From Heptranchias perlo (lineage: Eukaryota): a stretch of DNA of 64,000 bases. The stretch lies in the NCBI RefSeq assembly GCF_035084215.1, contig NC_090325.1, positions 182,528,001-182,592,000 of the forward strand, read 5' to 3'. This document shows, piece after piece, positions 8,834 through 58,156 of this stretch. The stretch's first letter is position 1. Each line of letters begins with the position of its first letter. The position numbers and the translations under genes were made by a program. The notes under the pieces were generated by a model. That model was not told the DNA's origin and searched no databases. It worked only from the letters and a program-made list of their open reading frames with translations.

Positions 8834-8874
8834 ATTCACAAGCTTTCGGAGGCTTCCTCCTTCGTCAGGTAAAT
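8834..8874 (-). ncRNA. Minimal type I hammerhead ribozyme (PLE family A)
   Basis: Sense: atttac CTGACGA a ggagg aag cctcc GAA AGCT T gtgaat (stem I, core, stem II, palindromic stem III). Confidence 0.85.
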
Positions 8875-9104
8875 GTTCAGGAGCTCCTTGAAGCCTACGC
8901 ATTTATACATCACAGAACAATACATGGTGTTTACAGACTGCCCCTGCAACTGCCCGTTGCCAAGGCAATCACCGTGTTCAGACAGAGAGGTGTCACCTGC
9001 AGAACCCCCGAATACACATTCAACAAAAAAACAAACAGGAAAAAAAAACAGAGAGAGGCAGAAACATCCGGAAGGCAGAGAAAGCCAGCAAATGACCCAT
9101 TATA

Positions 9105-10454
9105 TTAAAAACAGATAACATTTGTTCGCTGGTGGGGTAACGTGTAGCGTGACATGAACCCAAGATCCCGGTTGAGGCCGTCCTCATGGGTGCGGAACTT
9201 GGCTATCAATTTCTGCTCGACGATTTTGCGTTGTCGTGTGTCTCGAAGGCCGCCTTGGAGTACGCTTACCCGAAGGTCGGTGGATGAATGTCCATGACTG
9301 CTGAAGTGTTCCCCGACTGGGAGGGAACCCTCCTGTTTGGCGATTGTTGCGCGGTGTCCGTTCATCCGTTGTCGCAGCGTCTGCATGGTCTCGCCAATGT
9401 ACCATGCTCTGGGGCATCCTTTCCTGCAACGTATGAGGTAGACAACGTTGGCCAAGTCACAGGAGTATGAACCATGCACCTGGTGGGTGGTGTCCTCTCG
9501 TGTGATGGTGGTATCTGTGTCGATGATCTGGCATGTCTTGCAGAGGTTACCGTGGCAGGGTTGTGTGGTGTCGTGGACGCTGTTCTCTTGAAAGCTAGGT
9601 AATTTGCTGCGAACGATGGTCTGTTTGAGGTTGGGTGGCTGTTTAAAGGCGAGTAGTGGAGGTGTGGGGATGGCCATAGCGAGGTGTTTGTCCTCATTGA
9701 TGACATGTTGAAGGCTGCGGAGAACATGGCGTAGTTTCTCCGCTCCGGGGAAGTACTGGACGACAAAGGGTACTCTGTTGGTTGCGTCCCGTGTTGGTCT
9801 CCTGAGGAGGTCTATGCGATTTTTTGCTGTGGCCCGTCGGAACTGTCGATCGATGAGTCGAGCGTCATATCCCGTTCTTACTAGGGCGTCTTTCAGCGTC
9901 TGTAGGTGTCCATCGCGTTCCTCCTCGTCTGAGCAGACCCTGTGTATTCGCAGGGCCTGTCCATAGGGGATGGCCTCTTTGACGTGGTTAGGGTGGAAGC
10001 TGGAAAAGTGGAGCATCGTGAGGTTGTCCGTGGGCTTGCGGTAGAGTGAGGTGCTGAGGTGCCCGTCTTTGATGGAGATTCGTGTGTCCAAGAAAGAAAC
10101 TGATTCTGAGGAGTAGTCCATGGTGAGCTTGATGGTGGGATGGAACTTGTTGATGTTATCGTGTAGTCTCTTTAGTGATTCCTTGCCGTGGGTCCATAGA
10201 AAGAAAATGTCGTCGATGTATCTGGTGTATAGTGTTGGTTGGAGGTCTTGTGCAGTGAAGAAGTCCTGCTCGAACTTGTGCATGAAAATGTTGGCGTATT
10301 GGGGTGCGAATTTGGTCCCCATGGCTGTTCCGTGTGTTTGGGTAAAGAACTGGTTATCGAAGGTGAAGACATTGTGATCCAGGATGAAGCGGATGAGTTG
10401 TAGGATGGCTTCCGGAGATTGGCTGTTGTTGGTGTTGAGTATTGATGCTGTCGC
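9105..10454 (-). CDS. PLE reverse transcriptase (C-terminal half) plus GIY-YIG endonuclease; 5'-truncated but open
   Basis: QTHGTAMG and YIDD RT motifs, FLD, YRKPT, CxxxxCxxC linker, VVYLIRC..C...YIGET..LRQRMNGH, GLN end. Confidence 0.93.
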   Translation of the reverse strand, partial: ATASILNTNNSQSPEAILQLIRFILDHNVFTFDNQFFTQTHGTAMGTKFAPQYANIFMHKFEQDFFTAQDLQPTLYTRYIDDIFFLWTHGKESLKRLHDNINKFHPTIKLTMDYSSESVSFLDTRISIKDGHLSTSLYRKPTDNLTMLHFSSFHPNHVKEAIPYGQALRIHRVCSDEEERDGHLQTLKDALVRTGYDARLIDRQFRRATAKNRIDLLRRPTRDATNRVPFVVQYFPGAEKLRHVLRSLQHVINEDKHLAMAIPTPPLLAFKQPPNLKQTIVRSKLPSFQENSVHDTTQPCHGNLCKTCQIIDTDTTITREDTTHQVHGSYSCDLANVVYLIRCRKGCPRAWYIGETMQTLRQRMNGHRATIAKQEGSLPVGEHFSSHGHSSTDLRVSVLQGGLRDTRQRKIVEQKLIAKFRTHEDGLNRDLGFMSRYTLPHQRTNVICF

Positions 10455-10459
10455 AAAGA

Positions 10460-11885
10460 TACTGCCTCCCAAAGATACACAAAGCCAACACACCCGGACG
10501 TCCCATCGTATCAGGCAACGGAACCCTGTGTGAGAACCTCTCTGGATACATCGAGGGCATCCTGAAACCCATCGTACAGGGAACCCCCAGCTTCTGTCGC
10601 GACACTACAGACTTCCTACAAAAACTCAGTACCCACGGACCAGTTGAACCAGGAACACTTCTCACCACGATGGACGTCTCGGCACTATACACCAGTATCC
10701 CCCACGATGACGGCATCGCTGCGACAGCATCAATACTCAACACCAACAACAGCCAATCTCCGGAAGCCATCCTACAACTGCATTTTCTTTCTATGGACCC
10801 ACGGCAAGGAATCACTAAAGAGACTACACGATAACATCAACAAGTTGCATCCCACCATCAAGCTCACCATGGACTACTCCTCAGAATCAGTTTCTTTCTT
10901 GGACACACGAATCTCCATCAAAGACGGGCACCTCAGCACCTCACTCTACCGCAAGCCCACGGACAACCTCACGATGCTCCACTTTTCCAGCTTCCACCCT
11001 AACCACGTCAAAGAGGCCATCCCCTATGGACAGGCCCTGCGAATACACAGGGTCTGCTCAGACGAGGAGGAACGCGATGGACACCTACAGACGCTGAAAG
11101 ACGCCCTAGTAAGAACGGGATATGACGCTCGACTCATCGATCGACAGTTCCGACGGGCCACAGCAAAAAATCGCATAGACCTCCTCAGGAGACCAACACG
11201 GGACGCAACCAACAGAGTACCCTTTGTCGTCCAGTACTTCCCCGGAGCGGAGAAACTACGCCATGTTCTCCGCAGCCTTCAACATGTCATCAATGAGGAC
11301 AAACACCTCGCTATGGCCATCCCCACACCTCCACTACTCGCCTTTAAACAGCCACCCAACCTCAAACAGACCATCGTTCGCAGCAAATTACCTAGCTTTC
11401 AAGAGAACAGCGTCCACGACACCACACAACCCTGCCACGGTAACCTCTGCAAGACATGCCAGATCATCGACACAGATACCACCATCACACGAGAGGACAC
11501 CACCCACCAGGTGCATGGTTCATACTCCTGTGACTCGGCCAACGTTGTCTACCTCATACGTTGCAGGAAAGGATGCCCCAGAGCATGGTACATTGGCGAG
11601 ACCATGCAGACGCTGCGACAACGGATGAACGGACACCGCGCAACAATCGCCAAACAGGAGGGTTCCCTCCCAGTCGGGGAACACTTCAGCAGTCATGGAC
11701 ATTCATCCACCGACCTTCGGGTAAGCGTACTCCAAGGCGGCCTTCGAGACACATGACAACGCAAAATCGTCGAGCAGAAAGTGATAGCCAAGTTCCGCAC
11801 CCATGAGGACGGCCTCAACTGGGATCTTGGGTTCATGTCACGCTACACGTTACCCCACCAGCGAACAAATGTTATCTGTTTTTAA
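10460..11885 (+). pseudogene. PLE RT/GIY-YIG, right arm, disrupted
   Basis: Adds upstream motifs YCLPKIHK..PGRPIVS and MDVSALYTSIP. Lacks 186 bp (equivalent to 10210-10395, including GTAMG and YIDD) at ~10780. CGA>TGA stop at 11754. Confidence 0.9.
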
Positions 11886-12115
11886 TATAATGGGTCATTT
11901 GCTGGCTTTCTCTGCCTTCCGGATGTTTCTGCCTCTCTCTGTTTTTTTTTCCTGTTTGTTTTTTTGTTGAATGTGTATTCGGGGGTTCTGCAGGTGACAC
12001 CTCTCTGTCTGAACACGGTGATTGCCTTGGCAACGGGCAGTTGCAGGGGCAGTCTGTAAACACCATGTATTGTTCTGTGATGTATAAATGCGTAGGCTTC
12101 AAGGAGCTCCTGAAC

Positions 12116-12156
12116 AATTACCTGACGAAGGAGGAAGCCTCCGAAAGCTTGTGAAT
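12116..12156 (+). ncRNA. Minimal type I hammerhead ribozyme (PLE family A, right arm)
   Basis: aattac CTGACGA a ggagg aag cctcc GAAAGCTT gtgaat; one stem I mismatch relative to the left arm. Confidence 0.82.
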
Positions 12157-12754
12157 TTAAAATAAAATTGCTGGACTATAACTTGGTGTTGTAAAATTGT
12201 TTAGTCATCCAGGGAGCTATGACTTTGGTTCCCCTTCCTTTCCCCCTCGTAGGGATGTGTCTACTCTGTACCTGAACCAACTCCTCCTTGAAGGCCTCCG
12301 ATTGTTCAATTACTGTTTTGTCTACCAATTTTTGATTCCAATCCACCTGGGCAAGATCCTTTTTTAACTCACTTAAATTTACCCTCCTCCAGTTAAGCAT
12401 TTTCACATTTGATTGTTCCTTGTCCTTTTCCATAACTATTCTAAACCTAATGATATTATGATCACTATTCCCCAAATGCTCCCCCACTGAAACATGCTCC
12501 ACCTTCCCCATTTCATTCCCCAGAACTATATCCATCACTGTTTCCTTCCTATGATCCTATCATTTCTTTCCTACAGTTTCAAAGACGAGGGTTACAAAAC
12601 ACAAGTGTTTGTTTATTAATGTTTCCCAGTTTTGTTTTGTTTTTACTCCCATTTTCTTGGTTCTCAGTGCCAGTATTGAATTACAGATTGACTGACAGCT
12701 AGAGGAATCTCCATCGGAGCACAGTGACTGAACTGTACTAATCATAAGGGATAT

Positions 12755-13135
12755 GGAGAAAGATACTTGAGTACATAATCTAGGCTGATACTTCAATGTA
12801 GTACTAAGGGAGTGCTGCACTGGTAGAGATGCTGACTTTTGGATGAGACGTTAAACCAAGTCTGCCCTCTCAGCTGAACCTAAAAGATCCAATGACACTA
12901 TTCAAAGAAGAGCAGGGAATCTCTCCATGTATCCTGCCAACATTTATCCATCAACCAACATCACTAAAAAACAGATGATTTGGTTATTCTGTCATTGCTG
13001 TTTGTGGGACCTTGCTGTGTTCAAATTGGTTGCTGCGTTTGCCTACAGTACAACAGTGATTATACTTCATGTGCACTTCATTGGGTATGAAGCACTTTGG
13101 GACACCCTGAAGATGCCATATAAATGCAAGTTCTT
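12755..13135 (+). mobile_element. DeuSINE/SacSINE1-like SINE, 5'-truncated
   Basis: ATAATCTAGGCTGA...GTACTAAGGGAGTGCTGCAC...AAAAGATCC...TTATCCATCAACCAAC core, shared with 63635-63955; L2-like tail. Confidence 0.65.
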
Positions 13136-13470
13136 TTGTAAAATCAAATGTGCTGATGATATTAAGCTTTGTGGCCAGGTGCCCAGTATAAAACAGATTT
13201 ATAGCATTCAAAATATCTGGACAAATTAAGTGGATGTTTTAATCAATAGCTGATGAATTTTAATGTGGATATAAATATAGGTTAGTGCACATTGGAAGAT
13301 GTGATGTGTGTGCATAATGAAGTGGTCTTCAGCAAAGATAAAAAGAATTTAGGTGTGATTGTTGTTCATTCACTGAAAATACCAATCAATGTACAACTAT
13401 GGTCAACAGTGCTAATCAAATTCTAGGAAACATATCAAGGGCTTATTATTATAAGTTGAAAGGTTTCTAA
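13136..13470 (+). mobile_element. Old CR1 RT fragment
   Basis: KCADDIKL-like motif and degenerate downstream ORF2 sequence. Confidence 0.55.
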
Positions 13471-14391
13471 CTGATGGAACCGTGTTTCAAGAAGCTCCAT
13501 CTATCTATCTATATCTAAGACTATATCTAGCTATATAACATATTAAAAATCTTACATCTTTTTATCTGTAAACTATTTGTGTAGTCGCCTTTTTGTCACA
13601 CCTTTGTGTCAACATTTTCCATTATAAATTCCTATGGCTACATTTATAATGGAAACTGCCAATGTAAACTTGTTATTTTGTAATTCCATCCTCCCACCAG
13701 TGGTGGCATCATAGCACTTCAGTGTTTCATCTCCCTGCTCTTTCATCTCTTTACTGCAAAGAAACCTTTAATTCTTTTTCTGAAGATGTGTTTGGTATTT
13801 TCCCTTTAGGTGCCCTGGTCAGGGAATGTTAAATCACCTAATTCTATGTTCACTGTGCCACGTACAGGTGCAATACCTTTGGACTGTTGTGATTACTCAC
13901 TGTTTTCAAATATAATAGATATAAAATTTAAGTATATAAAAATAAGGAAGAACGTACCACTTTAAAATAGAGACTGAATTATGGGTCCAATTATCCCCAG
14001 TCCTCTAACCACACTTCACACTTGGTCTTGACTCTCCTTTCCGAATGCCACATAGGAACAGGAGTGGGCCATTCTGCCCATCGAGCCTGCTCCGCCATTT
14101 AATTAGATCATGACTGTTCTGTACCTTAACTCCATTTACCCGCCTTTGATCCATTTCCCTTGATACCTTACCACATTTGATCAACTAGCAATAGATTAAA
14201 AGTCTTGCATCTAGCGGCACAATTTATTTGTTACACTATTTTAATCATGCCTGGGTGCCATGTCTGGGTATTATTTTTAAAGTGTAAGGTATGTATACTT
14301 ACCATTATACTGTAATCTCTTGTAGTTGAACCATCAAAGATGAATTTTGTTTTTAAAATGTTAGCTTAGGTTCACTTTGGAATTGAATTAT

Positions 14392-15327
14392 GGGCCCAGA
14401 ATTTGCTGCAGAAATAACTGCTTGTTAAAGCACATACCATTATTAATGCGTAAAAAACCCAGCAATTTGTGGTGAGGAAGAGATACGGCATGAGATGTGA
14501 ATCACCACAGATTGCTGGGCGATTTGTGCCACTCTGCTGTTAGCATCGCAAAAAGAGGAGCTCGCCGTCAACCTCCCCATGAGTATAAAGAAATTGCTGC
14601 ATTTGTGCTTAAAAAGGAATTAAACTTGCCGCAGAAAGTTAGGGCTGCAATTTAACTGTGTAAGAACCAGGATGCAAGTTAAACTGGGGATATTACAAAA
14701 AGAAGTAAATCCCTCACAGAGAAAATAAAATGCATTAGGGAATGCAACTAAATGATAGAACTGAAACGAAAGAAAGACAGCACAGATTGGAAAGTGTTTT
14801 ACTGGACACGACAGTTGCTGATTGAGAATACGTAGGCTAGTAACTGGCTGGCAAAGCAAGAAATGTTTCTGACCAGCAGAGAGGAAGATCATCAAATTTG
14901 ATTTGTTGTGAATTTCTATAAAATATATAGCTTTTGTGTGTAGGCAGCAGCTGTCGTCGGTTCCGGAATTTCATGAATTAAAAAACAATCTGAACCCTGG
15001 GCAGGAGGCTGTCTTACTCGTATGTTTACGTGTCATGTTCCACAGGCATGTAATTGGATGATATATTAATAAACTTCATTTAAATAATCAGATGTCCAAG
15101 TTTCCACTTCAGAGTTTTGCTAACCCTTCAAATTGTTAAATTTAATTGGTTAAGGAGATAGGCTTTAGGTCCTGTCATTCACCAAGGTCCAAGATGCCTC
15201 GTTGACTGTTATCAATTCACACTTCCAGCAATTTGTGGCACAAAATTAATTGGTGCTAACGGGTGAGATAAAAAATTCAACTCATGGCGCTCACTGCGAG
15301 ATGCCCCACTCCAGCAAATTCTGGGCC
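14392..15327. mobile_element. Non-autonomous TIR element (Harbinger-like MITE)
   Basis: TIRs GGCCCAGAATTTGCTG / CAGCAAATTCTGGGCC; a related end lies at ~46330-46672. Confidence 0.7.
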
Positions 15328-15959
15328 AACATCTTCTAGTTAAAGCAGACATAAAGTGTTACTGCCAATTAGCATGGTATGCACGGCATTCCTTGTCATT
15401 GTCTCTTTGTTCTGGTTCAGGTTGACAATTCTGTACCCACAAGACGCTTGAAGATAGTGATAAATGTGACAGCTGCCAACAATTGCTTCAGTTCATAATT
15501 CATCCATTTATTTCCACGTGGAGCAACAAAGTGGAACTCCATGCTTAGAGCCCATGTGCGGCTTATATCCTTAATTAAAGATAAAAGAACTCAAGAATCT
15601 CAATATCGTTTTTTATGCTGCATCAAGAGAACCAATAAACTTACCTGTGAAAGTTAAGTAATGTATTGCATTCTAAGCTTACTTCTTAATAAACCTGAAC
15701 TACACAGTCTGTTGGCATGGTGCTTTTCAAAATACAGATAATACAGATCAATCTGTATTATTTCTAGGATGATACTCCAATGCAGTACTGAAAGACCATG
15801 CTGTGTGAAAATTGGCTGCAACATTTGACCAAATTACAACAGTGGCTACACTTAAAAAGTACTTCATTGGCCATGGGACATCTTGAGGACATAAAAGGTG
15901 CTATATAAATGTAAGTTAGTTCTTTCTTTCTTTCTTTTCTCTCTCTCGCTCCCTCCCTC

Positions 15960-16450
15960 CAAGGTTAAAGAGTGCACTGATGCCCTCCAGCAATGCAATC
16001 TCAGATATATATATATAGCCAAGTTTTAATTAATTGGGTGTGTGTCCTGACTTTTGCATTGAGCACAAGTGAGACATATTGGGGAGAAATCAAAACTGTA
16101 ACACCAGCCTTGTATAGATCAATGACGAGGCTGCTTATATTGCATGTGGTTGTGAATGCCTTATTTTTGAAAAGACATTGATGCATTGGAGAAGGTTCAG
16201 AGCAGAGTAGCACGGATGATTATGGAACTTAGGGCTCTAAGTTACGAAGAGAGATTTACAGAACTGGACATTTTCTACAGTACCGGATATGAGGCGCAGA
16301 CTCCCAGCAACAGTAGTTAATTAACTCCTTTTAAAAGAACTATACCAACCTCTGGTTAGGAAGGGGATTAAAAGTTATTGAAACAATTATACTTAAAAGT
16401 GGCTATATGCATCATGGAATGCAATGGCTTTTGTCGTGTTGGAATAGTAT
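15960..16450 (+). mobile_element. Old CR1 3' fragment preceded by a SINE/L2 tail (15800-15925)
   Basis: Degenerate LYRSM.R...IDALEKVQSR..RMI..L..LSYEER sequence. Confidence 0.55.
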
Positions 16451-16914
16451 GTGGAAAAGAGCCACTGAGGATCGTTAATGGATGTTATAAATTCAGATAG
16501 ATATTGTAGTTTTGCATGACCTTCTCGAGATCAAGGAGAAGTTTTGCATAACTCTACATCAGGAGTTGAAATAAGTTGGATAGACTCTATTTTAGAATAG
16601 ATTATACACAGTATGTGAAAGGAACGGGCTTAATATTTCAAATGGCTTCTTCTTCTTCCATGTTTTCTTATGTTCTCAGCAGAACCTAGGGCCAAAATTG
16701 GTGCCCAACCTATTTAATTCAGCAGAGTGCGTGTTTAGTGATTCAGTGGCTGACATCAGCTGAGTGGCTCTCCAGGAAATTTGCAAACTGATAAGTCGAG
16801 ATTCAACAAGGGTGCAAAGAAGCAATTCCAATGAATGTTTGTGCAACCAGATAGAGTGCTTAAAAACATTTTTATGTTGTTATATTAATATTTGGCAGTA
16901 ATACCGTTGTTACT

Positions 16915-17905: not shown

Positions 17906-18094
17906 GTTGATGGTAATCCTATTACATTACTATTGACAGTAAACTGTTATATTAATGTTAGCAGTAATAATGTTAATGTTGATAGTAATACAGTTGCATT
18001 ACTGTTGGTGGTAATATTGTTGCATTACTGTTGGTGACAATACTATTGTCATATTACTGTTGGTGGCAACAATGGACAAACACTTGACACAATT

Positions 18095-25387: not shown

Positions 25388-26068
25388 ATAAGAACATAAG
25401 AACATAAGAAATTGGAGCAGGAGTAGGCCAATCGGCCCCTCGAGCCTGCTCCGCCATTCAATAAGATCATGGCTGATCTGATCCCAACCACAAATCTAAA
25501 GAACACAAGAAGTAGGAGCAGGACCCGGCCACACAGCCCCTGGGCCCTCTGCGCCACCCACAGGGCATTGACCGATCCGAACTCAGCTTCATGTCCAATT
25601 TCCTGCCCGCTCCCCATAACCCCTAATTCCCTTTACTTCTAGAAAACTGTCCATTTCTGTTTCACACTGATTGCCTTGGCAACGGGCAGTTGAAAAAACT
25701 GTCTGTTATCACCAAGCATTGTTCTGTGAATTATAAATGCGACTTCATTTCGAGGACTTCATTTCCACATCGTTCACCTGAGGAAGGAGGTAGCCTCCGA
25801 AAGCTTGTGAATTTAAAATAAAATTGCTGGACTATAACTTGGTGTTGTAAAATTGTTTACAATTGTTTTAAATTTATCTAATGATGTAGCTTCCACAGCT
25901 TCCTGGGGCAGCAAATTCCACAGACCTACCACCCTCTGAGTGAAGAAGTTTCTCCTCATCTCAGTTTTGAAAGAGCAGCCCCTTATTCTAAGATTATGCC
26001 CCCAAGTTCTAGTTTCACCCATCTTTGGGAACATCCTTACTGCATCAAGCCCCTTCACAATCTTATAT
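25388..26068 (-). mobile_element. Young CR1 3' fragment, same subfamily as 22432-23149, inverted relative to it
   Basis: Reverse complement of 22665-23149 including the double 3'UTR; split by the PLE insert at 25663-25863. Confidence 0.92.
25663..25863 (+). mobile_element. 201-bp PLE family A 3' fragment containing a hammerhead ribozyme (25773-25811)
   Basis: ttcac CTGAGGA a ggagg tag cctcc GAAAGCTT gtgaa; 3' end matches 12140-12200; TGTTT duplication at 25658-25662 and 25864-25868. Confidence 0.88.
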
Positions 26069-26083
26069 GCGTGCAAAGAAATA

Positions 26084-27140
26084 GGCCATGATGTTAGACC
26101 CCAAGATCGGGTGGGTTGGGGGTGGGGAGTGGCAGAGAAAATCGATGTTTTTGGGAGCGGGCAGAAACCCTACCTCCAAGCCGCCCATTTTTGAATTCGA
26201 CCCAGGCAGATCTGTGTGCGTGTGCACAGCAGTCACCAGGAAGTCTTGCCCCCACTTAAATCTGGCGGGCCGATATTTAAAGGGGCAATGTATCTCAAAC
26301 TTAAGGTACTTTATATTTTGTGTATTGGACGCTTAAAATTATTTTAATTTTATCTGTTCACGCCAGGTGAAAGCAGGTGGGAAGGGCCGGATCCATGGTC
26401 AGTGCCTTTATTGCACTGCTTGTGGGCCGGAGGAGCAGGCCCAACAAGTATACCTGGTGTGATCGGCACCCTACAATCGGCCAGCCCCCTCCCCATTTCC
26501 AACGCCTCAACACCCAATGTCTGACCCCCTGACCCCCGATGTCCGACCCCCAATCCCCAATGTCCGACCCCCTGACCCTCGATGTCCGACCGCCCGACCC
26601 CCTATGTCTGACCCCTCCACCCCCATGTCTGACCCCCCAACCCCCAATGTCCGACCCCCCAACCCCCAATGTCCGACCCCCGATGTCCGACCCCCGACCC
26701 CGACCTCCGACCCTCGATGTCCGACCCCCGATGTCCAACTCACGATGTGATCTCCAACTCTCGTTGTCCAATTCCCCGATCTCCAACTCCCCATGCCTGA
26801 GCCCCTGATGATCCCCCCAATGACCACTGACCCCCCCCCCCGATATCGTCCATATCCCCCCTCCTCAGCCCCCTCTGATTTTTCCCAAGCCCCATGAGCT
26901 CTTTCTCTCTTTCTCCCGACCCCCTCTCTGATTTGCAATTCTTTTCACTGTGGACAGATAGCCAGCCTGTGAACCTGGCTACCTGTCGCGAGGAAAGCCC
27001 GGAAGCCACATTAAAGGCCTCCAATTAAGTCGTGCTCGTGTAGAGAGAGGTAAGAATTTTATCCCCGGGTTTCCCACCCGCCCATTGACCCCCCCCCCCC
27101 ACCCCCTCCTCGCCGCCATGATGTTTGGGATGACATTGAC
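26084..27140. mobile_element. Non-autonomous Harbinger-related element containing a minisatellite
   Basis: Subterminal blocks resemble those of 30974-36603 (GAAAATCG..TTTTT.GAGC.GGCAGAAA.CCT..CTCCAA; GGTAAG; CGCCCATTGACC). Confidence 0.6.
26512..26790. repeat. C-rich minisatellite, core ATGTCCGACCCC in ~14-21 bp units
   Basis: More than ten visible copies of (A/G)ATGTC(C/T)GACCCC. Confidence 0.9.
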
Positions 27141-33502: not shown

Positions 33503-33579
33503 CTTGGTTTCCACTCAGAATTGTTCTGTTTACACATATTTACCAACTTTTCGGACCCCCTCAAACTGACACCATCAGG

Positions 33580-34772
33580 ATGGGGGGGAGGGCGCCTTGG
33601 TTGCTTTCATCAGTACATCTGAGGACGAGCAACATCTGAGGACGAGCCAAGCACGGTGTGCACTTCCACCCCTTGAAGCTCCACAACACGCTGCTGCGCC
33701 ACAGGCACCTGCACAAGAGCACAGAGGGCATCAACAGAGGGTCTACAGACCGAGGCTCAGCTTCCTGGACCTCTCTGAGGAGCAGTGCATACGGAGGCTC
33801 AGAGTCAGTCGCCAGGTGGTCGCAGACATCCGCAGCCTCCTTCCCTGCCAAGCTGCTGCCGGATGGGCCAGGCGGCATCTCATTACCCGTCGCAGTTAAA
33901 GTCACTACTGCCCTCAACTTCTTCGCCTCTGGATCATTCCAGGTTGCCACCTGTGACATCGCCGTGGTCTCTCAGTCATCTACACACAAGTGCATAAGGC
34001 AGGTCACCGACAGCTTGTTTCGCGGGGCCTCGTAATACGTCAACTTCCCCATGTTCGACCTCAGCCAGAAGGAGAGGTCAGTGGGATTCCACTCTGTGGC
34101 TGGCTTCCCACAGGTACAGGGTGCAATCGATTGCACCCATATAGCAATACGAGCACCTCCACACAAGCCAGAACTGTTCATCAATAGAAAGGGCTATCAC
34201 TCCATCAACACTCAGCTCGTTTGTGACCACCGCAAAAGATTTCTTCATGTGTGCGCCAGATTCCCTGGCAGCTGCCACGATTCGTTCATTCTGAGGGAAT
34301 TCAACATCCCAGGCCTCTTCCATGCACCGAACACCCTTAAGGGCTGGCTCTTCGGGGACAAGGGATACCCTCTGGCTCGTGACACCTCTGAGGAACCCCA
34401 TCAGCGAGCAACAGCGTCGATACAATGACAGCCACATTGCCACCAGGTCTATAATTGAACATACAATAAGGTTGCTGAAGATGCGATTTCGGTGCCTCAA
34501 TCGTTCTGGGGGAGCGCTTCAATACGCACCAGCAAGAGTGGGTCGCATTATAGTAGCGTGTTGTGTCCTGCACAACATGGCGCAACAGAGAGGGATACCG
34601 GTTGAGGAGGCCCCATCCCCCACATCCACCATCCAGTTCTGCCGTCCACATTGAGTAGGAGGCGGAGGAGGAAGAGGAGGAGGAGGTGGAGGACGAACTC
34701 ATGGGCAGAGTAACGGCTCACCTGGCTGCTCACTAGGCCAGGCAGTCACTCATATGTGAACATATCTCGTAA
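33580..34772 (+). pseudogene. Harbinger (HARBI1-type, DDE_Tnp_4) transposase, disrupted
   Basis: LPVAVKVTTALNFFASGSFQ, GFPQVQGAIDCTH, NRKGYHSIN.QLVCD, FPGSCHDS, GDKGYP, YN.SH..TR..IE.TI..LK.RFRCL; stop at 34033-34035 and at least two frameshifts. Confidence 0.93.
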
Positions 34773-39010: not shown

Positions 39011-39054
39011 CTGTCCCTGGATTTCATCTAGGAGATTTTTAAGATGACTCTTGG

Positions 39055-39290
39055 TGAAATAAAAACAGAAAATGCTGGAAACACTTGCCAGGAAGCAGTT
39101 GTGGAGAGAGAAACATTTCAGGTCGATGACCTTTCATCAGAACTGGAAGATGTTAAAGATGAACAGCTTTTAAACAAGTGCAGAGCCAAAAAAAAAGTGG
39201 GTCAGGAACAGAACAAAAGGAAAACGCGAGCAGGGATACGGATAGTAATGAAGGTGAACGGGGTAAAAGAGACAAATACATTCTGTATTT
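39055..39290 (-). mobile_element. PLE family B pLTR fragment with a damaged hammerhead (39116-39144)
   Basis: Sense cagtt CTGATGA a aggtc atc gacct GAAA, followed by a deletion; homologous to 54535-54700. Confidence 0.75.
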
Positions 39291-45000: not shown

Positions 45001-47403
45001 TAAACTGAATTAATAAACTTCCTAGTGACTTTACCTTCAGAATCAGGAACTCTCAGGCACACAGCCCCTAAAACATGATTTGAATTTTCATAGCACCATC
45101 TTTTTACGGGGGCAGCTTGCACACGACCTGAGACAGGAAATCAGGTCAGAGGTTGGTGCGATGTCACATCCACAACAAAAGGCTGCAGTTTGCATTCCTA
45201 CGGCTGCTTCAGGTGCAATGCCATCTGAAGTGAAGACAGGGATTCAGGGGCAGCACTATGGAAGGAGGAGACATAGCATTACAGGTCTCCGCCCATATTT
45301 CTGGTGTACTGTGCCCGCTGGTCAGGCACTCCTGGGGGCATTGCACCCAGGAAACACAGCCCTACTATCTCTTTGCTGCAACAAAAAATTTACGCTATTT
45401 ATTATTTCCTTCTCTTCTGTTCTGTAGTCTCCTCGCTACACATACCAGCTAGAATAGAGGGCGGGTGACCTGTTTGCAGATCTACAGCTAGAGGGTATAT
45501 GAGAATAATCTGGTGATTCTCCCTTTGATTCTTCTACATTTTTCTGTGGGGACGCACATTGTCTCACTTTGGTGACAAGTTTCTGATCAGGAATTCACCG
45601 TGGGAAATTTGCAGTTGTCAACCCACATCCTAACACTTATGCAATTCGTTGGAGATTCAATTTGCATTGTTAGAACGGTCTGCTTCTAAAAGGGCGATGT
45701 CGCCATGGCAATACATCTCGCAAAACTAGCCGATGTGTTTCTAAACAGGAGAGAGTGTGTTGACACAATTAGTGATGTATTGTTGGAGACGCATCAATGA
45801 TCAAGTTTGCTGCCATCATTTATTAGGTTTATATAGCAGCTGCTTCAAGCACAAGCTTGCTGTGCCCATCAGCATGTCAGCCAAGTAGTCAGATGATGAG
45901 GAATGTTGCCTAATTAGAAGCAGTTGTACAGCTTTAGGTAAAGATCTAGGAAAGATGTTTTATATGACTGGTTTTCCATTCTCCCCAAGACTTGAAGGAT
46001 CTTATGCCACTGGTACCAATGCAGGGGATAGGGTTGTCCATGGAGGGCTGGAGCCAGGATGAGCAGCGCTGGTTACTTCCGATGAGAAAGAGGAGTTCAC
46101 GAGTGGCTACCAAATGGAGGTGCATTGGCAGCTGAAGTGTTCTGTCCATATCTATCATTATCCCAAGAACCATGTTTGTGAATTAGAGTCAAATCTAGAA
46201 AGAGAAATAAAGAGAGGGAAAGAAAGATTTGATTAAGAGAGAGAAAAGAGACAGAAAGGAAAAGTAAGAAAAAATTTTAAAATTTAAATTAAAAAAATTT
46301 CTAAATACTACCTGTAGGAATGAGACGCCATAGTTTCAATTGTTCCCTCTCTGGGCCGGAGAGGTTGAGTGGCATTGCAGGAACATAAATCTCAACATTT
46401 AAAAGGTACTTACGCTGTTAAGTACCAGCCCTAACTTTCAGCGGCGGGTTTAATTGGTAATTAACATGCAACCACAGCAATTTCTTGAAACTCACGGGCA
46501 CGTTGAGGGCAAGGTGCCGTTTTCACGAGGCTAACAGCAAATCATCCAGCAGTTTGTGCCAATTCGGAACTCACAGGGTATCTCTTCCTCGCCATAAATT
46601 GCTGGATGACTTACACATTAATAACAACATGCACATTAAACTCGCTGTTATTTTGCCAACAAATACTGGCCCAATATCAGTGGATGGAGAATGCTGTTTG
46701 AGATTTGAGCACTACATCAGCTTGTCACTACTGCCACCTGGTGGCATATCTGTAGCCTTGCCATATTCAGCTGCTCACTGATATGAAGGTCCAAATTCTT
46801 CAAGTAGTGCTTGTTAACACATTTATGTAAAATTCATTTTTTACGCTGTTTTAATGCAGTCATTAAACTATTTAAAATAAATGGATTAACGAGCACAAAG
46901 GATCGTAAGTGGGCATGTTAACCAGTAAACTATCAAAGGGAATTAAACCCCCAAGCCATTTGGAGTGTGGGCTTCTGGTACATTGTAAAATGTGACCGAT
47001 TTACATTTGTGATGTATTGAGAATCCAGAACATGCATCGTATTCTTAGCTGGATGACAAAAACACTTACCAACACTTGTAGAAGATATTCCTGTGTAGAA
47101 CCAAAATATCACCCCCACTTAACCCCTACCTGTACATAACTACTACTTTCAAAATAATAATATTGGCGATTTAGTGACATAATTTGGCAGAAGAGTAAAT
47201 GATAAATGGAATTAATCAGGTTTCTAGGTTGTGACCTGCAGTGAAAACTAGCCCAGATTTTCTGAGCAGTGTTATTTTTAAACAATGGAATTAACCCATT
47301 TTTTAAAAATGAGTTAACGCCAGTGCTAAAATAACACCCACTGATAAATCCAAGCTGAACTATTCTTGTTGTTTTGACTGAATTCAACAATTATCGCTTG
47401 GGA

Positions 47404-47725
47404 TAAAAACAGAAAATGCTGGAGAAGCTCAGCAAATGAGGCAGCATCTGTGGAGAAAGAAACGGTTAACGTTTCAGGTCGAAGACTTTTCGTCAGAACT
47501 GGAAGATGTTAAAGTTTTTAAGCAAGTACAGAGCCAGGGAAGGGGGGGGGGAAAGAACAAAAGGGAAGGTCTGTGATAGGGTAGAGGGCAAAAGTGATTA
47601 AATGACAAAAGGGATGATGGTGCAAGGCAAGGAGAGTGGTAATGGGACAGGTTAAGAAACAAAAGATTGGTCAGGAGTAGCTGTAAATGGCAACAGCAGA
47701 ACCATTACCAGCACTTGCTGTCCAG
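47404..47725 (-). mobile_element. PLE family B pLTR fragment with a near-intact hammerhead (47465-47499)
   Basis: Sense gtt CTGACGA a aagtc ttc gacct GAA ACGT T aac; close match to 54535-54845. Confidence 0.82.
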
Positions 47726-49239
47726 GTCATAACCACTGCTCCCATTTTTTTGGATTTACAGAAAGAATAAGAGAAACAGAGTAAATAGATGAGTTAAGGT
47801 GTGAGATAGCGAAAGAGAGCAACAGAGAGAGAAAAAAGACAGGCAAGAATTAGAGTGTAGGAGAGATGCAGATAGTTACAGGGAGACAAATATTTTGTTC
47901 TGAATGAAAACCATGAGAAATCAATTAGTATCATTCAATATTTTATATCATTATCATTCAATGAGGTTCCTTCCTAACTGTCTTCTTTCTGGACTGTAAA
48001 ACTTAAGCCTCTGTAATATTTCCTCATACTTGATCTGTGATCAGTCCTTTTGTTCTTTTCTGTAACCTTTCCAATGCAAGTAAATCTTTTTTGTGCAGAG
48101 ATGGCCAAAACTTAAAGTATTCTACGTAGGGACAAAAGGCGCAATTGTGTTGTTATTCTTTAATTTGGGGAAATGCCTTTTTATCTCCACACAATTTAAT
48201 TTTATATTTAACTTAATGGGCTCTTTTTCCTAAAGAAACTTCAGGCATAAGCCATGGCTTTGTAAAGAAAACAATCTTTTATTATATACTAGAAAATCGA
48301 CATTAGAATTAAACAACATCTTCGATTCATGCACAGTTAAGAATTGCTTTAACAACAATTAAAAAAAGAACCCTCTCATTCCCCAAAATGCATATCCTTT
48401 TGGAAAACAAAAGTCTATCTTAGATTAAGCCCTTAACGAAAGTTCATATACTCATGGTTGGCTCAGGCTTGTCGAGGCCCTCTAAAATCTCTTGATGGAC
48501 ATGTGCAGTTGTGTAGCACATGGTTTTCTCTTGTAGTTAGGTCAGCTATTCCAGAATCAATCTGTTAGCCTGCAACCAGGTAGAAAGTAGTGAGGTAGAG
48601 CAGCGAGGAATCATCCTACCTTCACATGGTTGGGGTTCTTACTCCTTTTAATTTTGAACCACACCTCTTAGGCAGTTGCTTGCCAACAATTGGCTTCTTC
48701 AAGTACAACCCCAGGATTGATTGACACTCCATTTGTTTTCTTTCAATGTCTTTTATGTAGCCAAGTTGAGTAGATCTCCAGCCGATCTGGAGCCAGGTTC
48801 TGCAAGTTGCTACGATGATCTGTTCTTCTCTGTGTGGTCTTTAACCAGATGTAACTTAATAGCCCTTCTTTTCTTCAGCCTGCCAGAGCCGATTTTCATA
48901 TGTATTTTTAGTACATCTAAGTGTGGTCTGACCTGTGCCTTGTAAATCTTTAGCATAATTTCTGTAGAATTATATTCTATTGTTCTGACTATATATCCTA
49001 AACCATGGGGTCGATAACCAGAGGATAGAGATTTAAGATAATTGGCAAAGAATCAAAGGGGAGATGAGGAGAAATTGTCTAACACAGCGAGTTCTACGAT
49101 CTGTAATGCACTGCCTGAAAGGGTGGAAGAAGCATATTCAATAGTAAAAAGGAAGAATTTGAAGAGTTATGGGGAAAGAATCTATTCATTTCTAGTACTT
49201 CTGATCACTTTTTGATTGTTTTCAAGTAAAGTGATTTCA

Positions 49240-52200: not shown

Positions 52201-52339
52201 TTAAATTCTCTGTCCCTTCCAGACACACTCTGCTTGTTTTTACCCAAATTGCTATTCTGCTTTACAGCCTTGACTTTTCTCTTTAGACATAAATGTGCCT
52301 TTACCTGAATCCTACCCCCACCGTATTAGGTTAAAGCCC
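49240..52339 (-). mobile_element. CR1 LINE covering most of ORF2
   Basis: Endonuclease (VYRPPN, MGDFN, LDLVLCN, SDHN) and RT fragments; TTTCA duplication at 49235-49239 and 52340-52344. Confidence 0.9.
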
Positions 52340-53368
52340 TTTCAGTAAGTTTATGCTTTTTCTCATTCAGCCTTTTTATTTCTTCAAATTTCTAGTACTG
52401 TTTATCACTTTTGCTTGTTTTCAAGTGGCGGTGAGTTAATTCTTTTTCTTTCATTCAGTCTTTTTTTTTCTTCAAATGTACTCACTTCTACTACTTACCA
52501 TTTTTGATTGTTTTCAAGTAGTGATTTATTTGTGTTTTAATGCTTTTCGTTTCATTGAACCTTTTTAGTTCTTCATAATGTATTCATTTCTACTACATCT
52601 TATCAGTTTTTTATTCTCTTGTGCATCCCCGATTTCCTTCACCCCACCAACGGCAGTCGTGCCTTCAGCTGCCTAGATCCTAAGCTCTGGAATTCACTCC
52701 GTAAACCTTTCCGCCTCTCTCCTCCTTTAAGACACTCCTTAAAACCTACATCTCACCTGTCCTAATATATCTTTTTGTGGCTTGGTGTCAAATTTTGTTT
52801 GATAATGCTCCTGTGAAGCACTTTGGGATGCTTTACTACGTTAAAGGTGCTATGCAAGTGCAAGTTGTTGTTATGATGCTCCTTAAAACGTACCTCTACG
52901 ACCAAGCTTTTTGTCACCTGTCCTACTATCTCCTTATGTGGCTCGGTGTCAAATTTTGTGACCCACCCTGGGACGTTTTACTACGTTAAAGGCTCTATAT
53001 GAGCACACGTTGTAGTTTTCAAAGTAAAGTGATTTATTTCAGTGAGTTAATGCTTGTTCTTTCGTTGTCTTTTTCTTTCGTGAAATGTACTTATTCTAAT
53101 ACTTACCGCTTTGTTATTGTTTTCGAAGTAAAATGATTTATTTCAGCGAGTTAATGCTTGTTCTTTCATTCAGCCCTTTTCTTTCTTGAAATGTACTTAT
53201 TCTACATCACTTTTTGATTGAAATAAATCATTTTACTATGAAAACAATCAAAAACTGATGTAGAATAAGTACATTTCAAGAAAGAAAAAGGCTGAACGAA
53301 AGAACGAGCATTAACTCACTGCAATAAATCATTTTACGATGAAAACAGTGAGTTAATGCTCGTTCTCC
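52340..53368. repeat. Degenerate ~105-110 bp AT-rich tandem repeat with a terminal inversion; L2 tails inserted at 52620-53015
   Basis: Recurring GATTTATTTCAG(T/C)GAGTTAATGCTTGTTCTTTC...GAAATGTACTTATTCTA...TTTTTGATTGTTTTCAAGT; inverted unit at 53219-53347; a further partial unit at 49181-49239. Confidence 0.75.
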
Positions 53369-53369
53369 A

Positions 53370-53478
53370 AATTTCCTCTCCTCCTCACCTGAAACTTAAG
53401 CCACTTCTGAACCTTCTGCCCATCTCCTCCTTGGCCCTCTCGCACATGCGCAGACTGGGTGGGGAGACGCTCGGGAAG
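53370..53478 (+). promoter_or_regulatory. PIGG promoter/5'UTR with an NRF1-like site
   Basis: CGCACATGCGCA at 53441-53452; CpG-rich 53440-53780. Confidence 0.55.
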
Positions 53479-53632
53479 ATGAAGCTGCGGTCGTCGCTCT
53501 TCGCCTGCTGCGGCCTCCTGGTGCAGGTGTTCGGAATGGCCGTTTTCCTGCGAGGCTTTTTCCCGGTTCCTCTGAAGTCATTCGGCTCTGCAAAAGCCAA
53601 GCTGTCGGACACTCCGGAAGAGCCAGTCGTAG
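53479..53632 (+). CDS. PIGG: PIGG coding exon 1 (GPI ethanolamine phosphate transferase 2)
   Basis: MKLRSSLFACCGLLVQVFGMAVFLRGFFPVP matches PIGG (MRLGSGTFATCC...VFLRGFFPAP); 154 nt; donor AG|GTAACC. Confidence 0.93.
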
Positions 53633-53897
53633 GTAACCGGAGCTCACTATACCCGACGCCTTGACTGACGGGCCGCCCCGCCCCGCCGGTGGGGTTTAAT
53701 GGCCTATTGCTGCCGGTGTGGCCCGTACCCCCCCCCGCCGCAAGTCAGTGTTCTTTGTTGGGGGGGGCGGGGGGCGGGGGGTGAGAAAGCATCTTTCTGC
53801 CTGTTTAGGGAGACCGTCTTCATACTGATACAGAGGGCCAAGAGCGAGAGTCCTTGGGCCTCGGGATGGGCCATTTCTTGGAGACATTTCCTTTCAC

Positions 53898-54425
53898 TGC
53901 CCTGCCTGTGCCCTACAGTCCTGCAGCTGCCCTACAATCCTGCTGCTGACCTGCCTGTGCCCTACAGTCCTGCAGCTGCCCTACAATCCTGCTGCTGACC
54001 TGCCTGTGCCCTACAGTCCTGCAGCTGCCCTACAATCCTGCTGCTGACCTGCCTGTGCCCTACAGTCCTGCAGCTGCCCTACAATCCTGCTGCTGCCCTA
54101 CAATCCTGCTGCTGCCCTACAATCCTGCTGCTGCCCTGCCTGTGCCCTACAGTCCTGCAGCTGCCCTACAATCCTGCTGCTGACCTGCCTGTGCCCTACA
54201 GTCCTGCCTGTGCCCTGCTGCTGCTGACCTGCCTGTGCCCTGCCACTGCCCTACAGTCCTGCCACTGCCCTACAGTCCTGCTGCTGCCCTGCCTGTTTCC
54301 TCTACAGTCCTGCCTGTGCCCTGCTGCTGCTGACCTGTCTGTGCCCTGCCACTGCCCTACAGTCCTGCTGCTGCCCTGTCTGTCCTGCCACTGCCCTTAA
54401 GTCCTGCCAGTGTGTTACTGCCCTG
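53898..54425. repeat. CpG-free minisatellite: 49-bp unit built from ~18-19 bp subunits
   Basis: CCTGCCTGTGCCCTACAGTCCTGCAGCTGCCCTACAATCCTGCTGCTGA repeated from 53901, decaying rightward. Confidence 0.92.
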
Positions 54426-54530
54426 TAATTGTAATATTGCCCTGTTTTTCCAGGTAACTAGGTAATAGGAGAACAGACAGAGTACACGCTGCTTTGGTCC
54501 TACATCACCGTGCAGTTCTTCACTCTTTGT

Positions 54531-57500
54531 ATTAAAAACAGAAAATGCTGGAAAAGCTCAGCAAGTGAGGCAGCATCTGTGGAGAAAGAAACAGTTAATG
54601 TTTCAGGATGAAGACCTTTTATTAGAACTGGAAGATGTTAAAGTTTTTAAGCAAGCACGGGGAGGTGGGGGAAGGAAAGAACAAAAGGGAAGGTCTGTGA
54701 TAGGGTAGAGGGCAAGAGTGATTAAATGACAAAAGGGATGATGGTGCAAGACGAGGGCGGTAATGGGACAAGCTAAGAAACAAAAGATCGGTCCAGAGTA
54801 GCTGTAAATGGCAACAGCAGAACCATTACCAGCACTTGCTGTCTGAAAAAATGGAAGCAGTAGTTATGAACTGAAGTTATTGAAATCAGTGTTGAGTCCA
54901 GAAGGTTGTAAAGTGTCTAAACGAAAGATGAGATGCTGTTCCTCGAGCTTACGTTGAGTTTCCTTGGAACGGTGTAAGAAGTCGAGGTCAGAGTGGGAGT
55001 GGGATGGGGAATTAAAACGGCAAGCAACCGGCAGGTCAGGGTCACGCTTGTGAACAGAGCGGAGGTGTTCAGCAAAGCGATCACCCAATCTGCGTTTGGT
55101 CTCCCCGATGTAGAGGAGGCCGCATTGTGAGCAGTGAATACAGTATACTAAATTGAAAGTAGTACAAATAAACCACTGTTTCACCTGAAAGGAGTGTTTG
55201 AGGCCCTGGACAGTGGGAAGGGAGGAGGTGAAGGGGCAGGTATTACATCTCCTGCGCTCGCACGGGAAGGTGCGTGGGGAGGAGAGCAAGTATTGAGGGT
55301 GAAGGAAAAGTGGACCAGGGTGTTGCGGAGGAAAGAATCCTTTCGGAATGCTGAAAGGGGAGGGGAGGGGAGGGGAAGATCCGTTTGGTGGTGGGATCAT
55401 GCTGGAGGTGGCGGAAATGGCGAAGGATGATACGTTGAATGTGAAGGCTAGTGGGGTGGAAGGTGAGGACAAGGGGGACCCTTTCATGGTTCTGGAAGAG
55501 AGGGGAAAGGGTCAGGGCAGAAGTGCGGGAAATAGGACGGACATGGTCAAGGACCCTGTCATCTACAGTCCTCAGTCAAGGAAAAAGGAAGACACATGCT
55601 GGCGTGGAAGGTGGCATCATCAGAACAGATGCGACGGAAACAGAGAAACTCGGAGAAGGGAATAGAGTCCTTACAGGAAGCGGGGTGGGAGGAAGTGTAA
55701 AATCAAGGTAGCTCTGGGAGTCGGTGGATAGATATTTGATGTCAGCCTGTCCCCAGAAATAGAAATAGAGAAGTCGAGGAAGGGAAGAGTCGGATGTGGA
55801 CCATGTGAAGGCAAGGGAAGGGTGCAAATTGGAAGCAAAGTTGATGAAATTTTCCAGTTCGGGACGAGAGCAGGAAGCAGCACCAATACAGTCATCGATG
55901 TACCAGAAAAAGAAGTAAGGGAGGGGACCTGAGTAGGACTGGAACAAGGAATGTTCCACGTATCGCTCAAAAAGGCCGGCATAGCTGGGATCCATACGGG
56001 TTCCCATAGCGACACCTTTTATTTGGAGGAAGTGAGTGGAGTCAAAGGAGAAGTTGTTCAATGTAAGAACAAGTTTAGCCAGGCGGAGGAGGGTGGTGAT
56101 GGATGGGGACTGGTTGGGCCTCCGTTCAAGGAAGAAGCGGAGGGCCCGCGGGCAGTCCTGGTGGGGGATGGAGGTGTAGAGGGACTGGGCATCCATGTTG
56201 AAAAGGACACGGTTAGGGCCGGGGAACAGGAAATTGTTAAAGTGGCAGAGGTGGTCGGAAGAGACTGGACAAGGGGAGAAAAATTGAGTCGAGAAAGGAG
56301 GAAATAAGTTCTTTGGGGCAAGAACAGGCTGAAACGATGAGTCTCCCAGGGCAGTCTTGTTTGTGGATCTTGGGAAAGTAATAGAAGTGGGCTGTGCAGT
56401 GTTGGGGGACTGTGAGGTTGGAGGCCGTGGTGGGCGGGCGCGGGGAGATCTCCAGAGGAGATGAGGTCAGTGATGGTCTGGGAAACTATGGCTTGATGTT
56501 CGGCAGTGGAGTCATGGTCCAGGGGGAGGTAGGAGGAGATGTCAGAGATTTGGCGTTAAGCCTCTGCAGGGTAGAGGTCTGTTCGCCACACAGCAACAGC
56601 GCCGCCCTTGTTGGCAGGTTTAATAACAATTTCAGGGTTGGACCTGAGAGAACGGAGTGCTGCAAGTTCAGAGGGAGGTAGGTTAGAGTGAGCAAGGGGA
56701 GCAGAGAAATTGAGACAGCCGATGTCACACTGGCAGTTCGCAATGAAAAGATCAAGAGAGGGTTGGGTCCATGTGGAACAAGAATTCTGAATACGGGAGA
56801 ATGGGTCCACTGTGCGGTGGGGGGGCGAAACTCCTGGCCAAAGAAGTGGGCATGGAGGCGAAGGCGACGGAAGAAGAGCTCAGCACGTGTCGAGCTCGAA
56901 ATTAGTTGAGGTGGGGGCGCAAGGGGATGAAGCTATGGCCTTTGCTGAGGATTGATCGTTCTGGGTCAGAGAGGGGAAGGTCAGAGGGAATGGTGAAAAC
57001 ATGACAAAGGGTGACATTGGAGGGAGGGATGGGGTCAGAGGAAAGTGAAGGGGAAGAAGAATCAAGAGGGGTGTTGGTATCTAAGAGTTGTTGAAGCTTG
57101 CAATCCTTGACCCCTGAAAGGAAGAAGAAAAGTTTTTTGTTAAAGCGCCGGATGAGGTGAAGGATGAAATAGAACTGTGGACCAGGACAACTCTGAAATA
57201 GTGAGTCGGTGCTGCTGAAGAGAGAGGTCGAGAGCGTGCATGTGACGGCGCATGGAGTTGAGCATGGATCTCAGGAAGCGACAAAAGCAGTGGTTCGAGG
57301 AATGCTGAATATCATGGAGATACCTGTAATCACAGGTAGATCTGAAACATGAAAGGTGGAGTTTAAGTTGGAAACCACATGGAATAATGTGGAGATGCCG
57401 GTGATGGACTGGGGTTGACAAATGTAAGGAATCTTACAACACCAGGTTATAAGTTGGACTATAACCTGGTGTTGTAAGATTCCTTACACATGGAATAAGT

Positions 57501-57803
57501 CAGAGCTGGAGACGGTTGCTGAGGAAAGAGATGTGGCTGTGAAAGCAACTTTTAGAAGAAACCTATTCAAACGTGAGAAGGGAAACAGGAAGCAATGAAG
57601 GTGAACAAGGTAAAAAAGACAAACGGAAAGCCCGTCAGAGAGAAGAGCAGAACTTCTTCAAGGTGGGCATTCCTGGAAGAGACGTGGCAGTGAATTAAAC
57701 ACTAAATCAAAAGCAAAACACTGTGGATGCTGAAAATCTGAAATAAAAATAGAAAATGCTGAAAAAGCTCAGCAAGTGAGGCAGCATCTTTGGCGAAAGA
57801 GTT
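54531..57803 (-). mobile_element. Near full-length PLE family B with partial-tandem pLTR, decayed, antisense in PIGG intron 1
   Basis: ORF start ~57670 (MPTLKKF); KPANKGGAV, MDAQSLYTSIP, QIKGVAMG, YIDD, VYCIHC..C...YIGETKRRLGDRFAEH; direct pLTR repeat at 54535 and 57746; TSD TTCACTCTTTGT at 54519-54530 and 57804-57815; decayed hammerhead 54592-54630. Confidence 0.92.
57388..57486. mobile_element. 99-bp palindromic micro-insertion of PLE family A (variant subfamily) termini
   Basis: TSD CACATGGAATAA at 57376-57387 and 57487-57498; 29-bp arms 57423-57451 and 57460-57488; left end matches 8750-8782. Confidence 0.9.
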
Positions 57804-58062
57804 TTCACTCTTTGTGATGGTTACTATTTGGCAGTATCAGGAGCTTGAATCACCTGGCGTTAGGTGTTTGAGTCTAGTTTGGCATGCCTGGTAGTTGAGG
57901 GACTCAGTGGGGATGTGGGAATCTTTGTCTTCAGAGGACGGCCTAGACAGCTCATTGATGGTAGGGGCTTGGGATTTTCTGTAAGTAGGAAGGAGAGCCC
58001 TCTCTACTTGTGTCATCCCAGTTACAGATACAGTTTATGCATCACTTGTTCTGCTTGACAGA

Positions 58063-58156
58063 CTCACTCACCTGACGAAGGAGATAATCTCCGAAAGCTT
58101 GTGATTTTCAAATAAAACTGTTGGACTATAACCTGGTGTTGTAAGATTCCTTACAT
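58063..58156 (+). ncRNA. 94-bp PLE insert consisting of a hammerhead ribozyme (58068-58104) plus the 3' end
   Basis: tcac CTGACGA a ggaga taa tctcc GAAAGCTT gtga; AATAAA at 58111; TSD TTGACAGA at 58055-58062 and 58157-58164. Confidence 0.88.

Follow-up and report, generated by a model that had tools for sequence, protein, structure and literature searches.

The 64,000-nt stretch analysed here (hereafter the window) comes from the shark Heptranchias perlo (RefSeq assembly GCF_035084215.1, contig NC_090325.1, positions 182,528,001 to 182,592,000 of the forward strand; positions below are counted from its first letter). It carries insertions of two families of Penelope-like elements (PLEs), called A and B, and with them seven short stretches resembling the hammerhead ribozyme (HHR). 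The insertions, their open reading frames (ORFs), which encode a reverse transcriptase (RT) joined to a GIY-YIG endonuclease, and the hammerheads, which lie in the pseudo-long terminal repeats (pLTRs), are collected in Table 1. An earlier sequence-only reading of the window had reported seven hammerheads, and all seven stretches are present in the sequence at the positions and on the strands that it gave. Four of them, all from family A, are intact, but each of the three from family B is defective. Nor are the seven independent of one another: the 8834 and 12116 motifs (named, like the others, by position) are the arms of one inverted insertion, which leaves three independent intact insertions.

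Table 1. Penelope-like insertions, reading frames and hammerhead motifs in the window.
Feature	Coordinates	Strand	Remarks
Family A insertion, two 5'-truncated inverted arms	8747..12199		left arm ~8747-10455 (-), right arm ~10456-12199 (+)
Family A ORF part: RT, linker CX4CxxC, GIY-YIG endonuclease	9105..10455	-	
Family A minimal type I hammerhead, intact	8834..8874	-	predicted cut 8840/8839
Family A hammerhead, intact, mirror arm of the 8834 copy	12116..12156	+	predicted cut 12150/12151
Family A pLTR fragment inside another repeat	25663..25866	+	hammerhead 25772-25812 intact, predicted cut 25806/25807
Family A subfamily fragment, 8-bp target duplication	58063..58156	+	hammerhead 58066-58106, predicted cut 58100/58101
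Fold-back mini-insertion, family A 3' end and tail, without hammerhead	57388..57486	.	12-bp target duplication, nested in family B element
Family B PLE, full-length, decayed	54531..57803	-	12-bp target duplications 54519-54530, 57804-57815
Family B ORF, broken: N-terminal region, RT, linker CX4CxxC, GIY-YIG	54864..57670	-	
Family B hammerhead relic	54591..54631	-	3/5 stem II pairs
Family B pLTR fragment, short inverted piece at 5' end	47403..47750	-	hammerhead 47462-47502, predicted cut 47468/47467
Family B fragment, diverged	39047..39280	-	hammerhead relic 39116-39146

We searched the window with a strict descriptor of the minimal hammerhead, consisting of the core, a perfect stem II, GAAA, U-H and a stem I of at least 3 bp. 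Over the 64 kb it returned four motifs, all of them from family A, against two hits in 200 dinucleotide shuffles. With one defect allowed, the 47465 motif was added to give five, against none in 40 shuffles. The number of motifs is far above chance, and no hammerhead families beyond A and B turned up in the window by descriptor search. Overall, the conserved cores C3-U4-G5-A6-N7-G8-A9 and G12-A13-A14-A15.1 (hammerhead numbering) are present in 6 of the 7 motifs, the exception being 54592, and an extra A stands between positions 9 and 10.1 in all seven. Helices II and I, arranged in the type I topology, are complete in 4/7, all from family A; the 47465 motif has one defect in each stem, and the stems are broken in 54592 and 39116. 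The palindrome at 15.1-16.1 followed by H17 reads AGCU-U in family A (4/4) and ACGU-U in one of the three family B copies, as well as in the majority of the family B contigs described below. The pair 10.1-11.1 is G-C in family A (4/4) and A-U in family B (3/3). The sequence-only reading had recognized that stem III amounts to a mere 4-nt palindrome, and its predicted cut sites, CUU in A and GUU in B, were rightly placed.

All four family A copies share the complete core, the extra A, a 5-bp stem II, GAA, AGCU, U17 and a stem I of 4-6 bp. The family had been described as having a CUGACGA/CUGAGGA core, stem II with all five pairs formed, AGCU in every copy and a predicted cut after CUU, and this description holds throughout. 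The twin insertion is bounded by a single 12-bp target duplication (8735-8746 and 12200-12211). Its arms are 99.6% identical over 1423 nt, and the left arm has ~44 nt more at its 3' end (a 'tail'). An RT-linker-GIY-YIG ORF lies upstream of both the 8834 and the 12116 motifs; the part of it listed in Table 1 has 93% identity to the Heptranchias perlo protein P0001, and its next matches are from other sharks. Separately, we observed that an AATAAA hexamer, possibly a polyadenylation signal, is invariant in all four copies ~10 nt past the cut.

Family B is represented by one full-length, decayed element and two larger fragments. The ORF of the full-length copy contains several frameshifts and stops, with a likely start at the ATG at 57670. 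Its RT is 61-71% identical to the top ray and shark proteins, and its N-terminus is 73% identical to P0153 over 59 aa. A second ATG in the reading frame of the N-terminus, at 57787, was set aside as the family B start for want of homology support. The hammerhead of this element is a relic, whose core reads CUAAUAA (G5 and G8 lost) and in which ACAU replaces ACGU. The hammerhead of the 47 kb copy retains an intact core, with one mismatch each in stem II and stem I. In the 39116 relic, a 7-nt deletion removes the centre of the palindrome, the cut site and the start of stem I. In the family B majority among the contigs of run X1, which contains this DNA, stem II is intact, the palindrome is ACGU and position 17 is U (225 contigs, agreement 0.66). 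The stem II that had been proposed for family B, AGGUC/GACCU, is complete in 39116 and intact in the contig majority but not complete in 47465 and 54592, and the proposed ACGU palindrome is that of the contig majority but of only one of the three window copies. As a reconstruction of the family, the proposal matches the contig majority, though the window holds no whole copy of it.

Comparison of the flanks did not reveal clear target duplications for the 47 kb and 39 kb copies. The latter joins an N-terminal-like piece to the hammerhead region (39222-39276 is 82% identical to 57569-57623 over 55 nt) and, judging from this arrangement, may be a retrozyme-like derivative formed by internal deletion. 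Another short piece resembling family B, without a hammerhead, lies at 58802-58854 (+) and is 77% identical over 57 nt to the region from +39 to +95 past the cut.

Covariation inside the window had also been claimed. We aligned six motifs, excluding 39116 for its deletion, and used a paired structure derived from these same sequences: 88.5% of the cells pair, and two-sided changes occur at 10 of the 13 pairs, exceeding every one of the 500 shuffles and of the slid controls. Nearly all of the two-sided changes are differences between A and B. Within family A, we found one two-sided change, the single compensatory replacement of G-C by A-U in stem II of the 58068 copy, and one one-sided change (U-G/C-G). 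No covarying pair was found within family B among the window motifs aligned. As made, the claim is not supported: within a family it comes down to one pair, in A.

Judging by their encoded proteins, both families are Penelope-like elements, probably of the Neptune type and closest to shark proteins. That both are PLEs, with their motifs in the pLTR 3' of an RT-GIY-YIG ORF, had already been proposed correctly. Representative proteins from A and B share 35% identity across 461 aa. A zinc-finger linker, CX2-5CxxC, occurs in both window ORFs and, among homologues reaching the endonuclease, in 71/81 of family A and 6/6 of family B. This linker is a mark of both Neptune and Nematis (PMC8557442; this and the other papers are cited here for the portions covered). 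A single ORF combining an RT with a C-terminal GIY-YIG domain and CxxC is present in both families, split over several frames in family B. The rest of the PLE anatomy is also there: a pLTR with a hammerhead 3' of the ORF, target-site duplications (TSDs), an inverted 5'-truncated arm and an optional tail. Target duplications were found at 4 of the 7 flank pairs examined (three of 12 bp and one of 8 bp); by chance, a shared stretch of at least 12 nt was seen in 4 of 20,000 random 40-nt zone pairs. The inverted arm with its tail and the fold-back mini-insertion are arranged as described in PMC3846280 and PMC8557442.

Both families are very abundant in the contigs of several runs, with a summed depth of 1e5-1e6 in repeat bins versus 46 in a unique X1 bin, where summed contig depth is not a copy number and all four runs compared are contigs. 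The 3' ends of family B pile up at 57708/57709, ~95 nt past the cut (743 and 596 contigs in X8, 427 in X13), in agreement with internal initiation by the RT (PMC11167929). Organism C (run X8) has family B in abundance, but in its bin at 58052-58180 the 58 kb family A motif is nearly absent (depth 0.61 at 80% likeness). In distribution, the two families seem not to be alike. The family A pattern was found in no stretch of the viral contig collection. Matches to the family B post-cut pattern, at least 120 metagenome and 25 viral loci, were judged to be chance hits of too loose a pattern: among the 145 loci listed, none has a hammerhead upstream and 4 have matches of 24-33 nt around the pattern.

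The motifs lie 3' of an RT-GIY-YIG ORF, in insertions with target duplications, with recognizable core and stems, and those of family B have decayed. They are probably minimal type I hammerheads in the pLTRs of two Neptune-type PLE families, carried in as passengers of insertion and by now partly decayed, which would likely cut weakly and only as same-family pairs in the tandem transcript of an active element. Lacking helix III, a monomer would be unable to close the three-way junction. In a tandem pLTR-ORF-pLTR transcript, by analogy with published systems, two motifs would swap their stem I strands while their palindromes pair as a shared stem III, and the protein of the element would probably assist the cleavage of such a dimer. 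On RNA left mostly uncut at the 3' motif, reverse transcription would begin 50-100 nt further downstream, and most insertions would for that reason include the complete hammerhead. The junction spanning the cut position is found in 5 of the 8 insertions (the family A twin, the copies at 25.7, 58.1 and 47.4 kb and the 3' end of the full-length family B copy), and the templates of these five were therefore uncut at the 3' motif. The sequence-only reading had taken the stem III palindrome as the signature of minimal PLE hammerheads proposed to cleave as dimers, and its dimer model is indeed the one published in PMC4209133, where the Schistosoma minimal hammerhead (min-HHR) is inactive as a monomer and weakly active as dimers. 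The Poseidon HHR of anole needs protein in order to cut, and insertion in vitro does not depend on this HHR (PMC11167929).

We modelled the dimers without a term for tertiary energy. Homodimers of family A preserve 24-26 of the 26 pairs and score -12 to -23.5 kcal/mol, and the models overall would agree with weak dimer activity. Heterodimers of A and B come out at +8.5 to +13.6 kcal/mol, with 3 of the 12 pairs of stem I and 2 of the 4 pairs of stem III retained; as duplex energies, the loss is ~4 kcal/mol at each of the two stems I and ~2-3 kcal/mol at the palindrome. Pairing is thus predicted to be family-specific, mostly through stem I. Family-specific dimerisation had been put down to the different palindromes; it recurs in the models, but the palindrome makes the smaller contribution and stem I the larger. 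Specificity would follow anyway if pairing stays within one transcript. Dimers of family B were not stable (-0.6 to +5.7 kcal/mol) in models built on the damaged window copies.

Several findings weigh against reading the motifs as weakly cutting dimers of PLE origin. In its active geometry, the modelled A/A dimer scores 2.5-8.7 kcal/mol poorer than a pair of folded monomers and lies 9-16 kcal/mol above the best of the inactive duplexes; it is therefore not favoured by folding energy alone. Position 17 is a U in both families, and family B has A-U at 10.1-11.1, where PMC4209133 gives a highly conserved G10.1-C11.1. Rfam covariance models gave no match at gathering score in the 64 kb, and the three weak Rfam matches at 25500-26000 include no hammerhead; we would attribute the missing hammerhead match to the lack of a helix III. 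The Pfam scores of the RT and GIY-YIG pieces in the window are just under the curated cut-offs. Finally, the window contains no tandem copies, and no tandem arrays lie over any motif; same-strand copies are 7-32 kb apart, and no same-strand partner of the same family is nearer than 7 kb.

Alternatively, the hammerhead could be a working part of transposition. The upstream motif of the tandem transcript would cut in vivo and set the 5' end of the RNA that is reverse transcribed and integrated, while the downstream motif stays uncut, as the hepatitis delta virus (HDV)-like ribozyme does for R2. We advance this possibility tentatively, and on the present evidence hold it to be rather unlikely. 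Its main support is the full-length family B copy, whose 5' end (start 57803) lies 1-10 nt past the predicted hammerhead cut. Right after the 12-bp duplication, this copy opens with the three bases that follow the predicted cut; a 4-nt gap comes next, and what follows agrees with the post-cut strand except for 4 mismatches (over 44 nt). The true 5' end may fall anywhere from +1 to +10, since the next bases of the target resemble the first four of the element, and this uncertainty lessens the force of the coincidence. As the copy includes the N-terminus of the ORF, reverse transcription traversed the entire ORF before ending at this point. This end may record cleavage in vivo, but a transcription start or an RT stall at the folded motif would give an identical one. 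It was noticed after the fact and is the only near-cut 5' end among the 8 insertions in the window; the others lie at -144, -38, ~-255, ~+20 and +39 relative to the cut, inside the ORF, or are unclear. In one joint row of X1 (depth 447), whose geometry is ambiguous, 16 letters match the post-cut strand and stop a single base before the cut, which may speak for cleavage. No pile of unrelated flanks at the cut was seen among the 24 of 9,490 loose-end rows listed, in which full-length copies are a small share. In anole, no RNA-seq reads start or end at the HHR cut, and cleavage is not needed in vitro (PMC11167929). We found no link between the genomic 5' ends of endonuclease-positive (EN+) PLEs and the cut in the literature searched, most subscription papers and figure supplements being outside that search. 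If such asymmetric cleavage were true, it would give PLE hammerheads, whose role PMC8557442 describes as unclear, a first role in vivo, with the 5' junctions of TSD-bounded shark copies as its fossil record. The 5' junction of the full-length family B copy is the part that could matter.

The presence of the cut junction in five of eight insertions would also suit motifs that are seldom or never cut and are kept for structure or protein binding, either as a landmark near the RT start sites or as part of a 5' untranslated region (UTR) intron with translation control. This seems to us improbable. It would accommodate the U17 of both families and the A-U pair of family B, and two family B monomers (39120-39146 and 47476-47502, both -) are predicted to fold a rival hairpin in which the catalytic core is sequestered by pairing with loop II and stem II and which could serve as an off switch. 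The Naiads have spread although they lack HHRs (PMC8557442), and 8 of 9 Xenopus retrozyme dimers remained uncut (10.64898/2026.07.22.740005). However, all positions of the catalytic core have been preserved, together with the palindrome and U16.1-H17, in two families with such diverged proteins, which a landmark would not need. Moreover, the related anole HHR does cut, and mutants of its core abolish the cut (PMC11167929).

A branch-point-like word, with a pyrimidine tract, CAG and ATG after it, overlaps the family B cut site at 47448-47471 and 54577-54600 (-), and the pattern of branch point, pyrimidine tract and YAG is present at 47471 and 54600. We regard an overlap of the cut site with an intron branch point as a weak idea, since the pattern occurs 12 times in 128 kb. 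Comparison with P0153 favours a different acceptor and the ATG at 57670 over the acceptor at the cut site. No splice joint was found at the candidate acceptors among the 15 of 2,730 joints listed, in which full-length copies are a small share.

Nothing in the surroundings of the motifs points to a role for the host. A coding exon of the NSG/calcyon family lies at ~1123-1254 (-) (Pfam PF06387, E 1e-20), and a GC-rich stretch ending in a splice donor, at 53479-53632 (+), is a likely first coding exon. Its translation is similar to the PIGG N-terminus, which makes PIGG a candidate for the gene, and it had no match in PDB or Atlas. The family B element would lie antisense in the first intron behind this exon. 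Co-option of one or more motifs by the host for cutting its own pre-mRNA is very improbable: the 58068 motif is downstream of, and on the same strand as, the likely first exon, and the 8834 motif is on the strand of the NSG/calcyon exon, but the motifs are ordinary members of very abundant families with neither a lengthened stem III nor a near dimer partner, and the family B copies are decaying. A host role at these loci is unlikely, as there is no same-strand, same-family partner within 7 kb and no intact family B copy. Elsewhere in the window, we observed a DDE transposase fragment at 34036-34428 (+) and its neighbours (PF13359), RT fragments of the type found in long interspersed nuclear elements (LINEs), for example at 6439-6915, and two GC-rich minisatellite arrays (53897-54407 and 26490-26790).

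Among known systems, the reading of the motifs as passenger hammerheads of PLEs finds its closest counterpart in the min-HHR of metazoan PLEs (Cervera & De la Pena 2014, PMC4209133), reported there from fish Xena, Poseidon and Neptune elements. The likeness extends to the type I topology, the CUGANGA and GAAA cores, the extra base between 9 and 10.1, a palindromic 15.2-16.2 without a real helix III, a helix I of 4-6 bp, the site in the pLTR and the occurrence mostly as single dispersed copies. In contrast, stem II has 5 bp here versus 7-8 in the Schistosoma families, and family B has A10.1-U11.1 in place of a G-C pair that is highly conserved there, though not obligatory. Sharks are not named in the portions of its text and supplement covered here. 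With the Neptune clade of EN+ PLEs (Craig et al. 2021, PMC8557442), both window families have the linker motif in common, as does Nematis. The Poseidon element PAc of Anolis (Frangieh et al. 2024, PMC11167929) similarly has an HHR near the ORF start, with 3' ends and a tail that are set downstream of the HHR by RT initiating internally on uncut RNA. However, it belongs to the Poseidon clade, its cut lies 26 nt inside the ORF whereas that of family B lies ~134 nt upstream of the likely start codon, and it shows no RNA ends at the cut where family B has one genomic 5' end near it. Solo copies of Penelope in D. virilis (Schostak et al. 2008, PMC2377424) are likewise TSD-flanked and full-length, without an upstream pLTR and with a short direct repeat at both ends; that study predates the discovery of the HHR and, in the portions covered, draws no connection between a ribozyme cut and the 5' end. 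Non-LTR retrozymes, which are reported from one chondrichthyan genome (Li et al. 2026, 10.64898/2026.07.22.740005), carry a type I HHR related to those of PLE pLTRs. They are tandem non-coding units, whereas the window copies are dispersed PLE ends, two of them with an ORF, and we rejected a retrozyme identity for lack of head-to-tail tandem non-coding units. Overall, this class of sequence has been known since 2014, and the window adds to it two shark families that surround one and the same core with different stems and palindromes and would serve as a clean pair for comparing homodimers with heterodimers.

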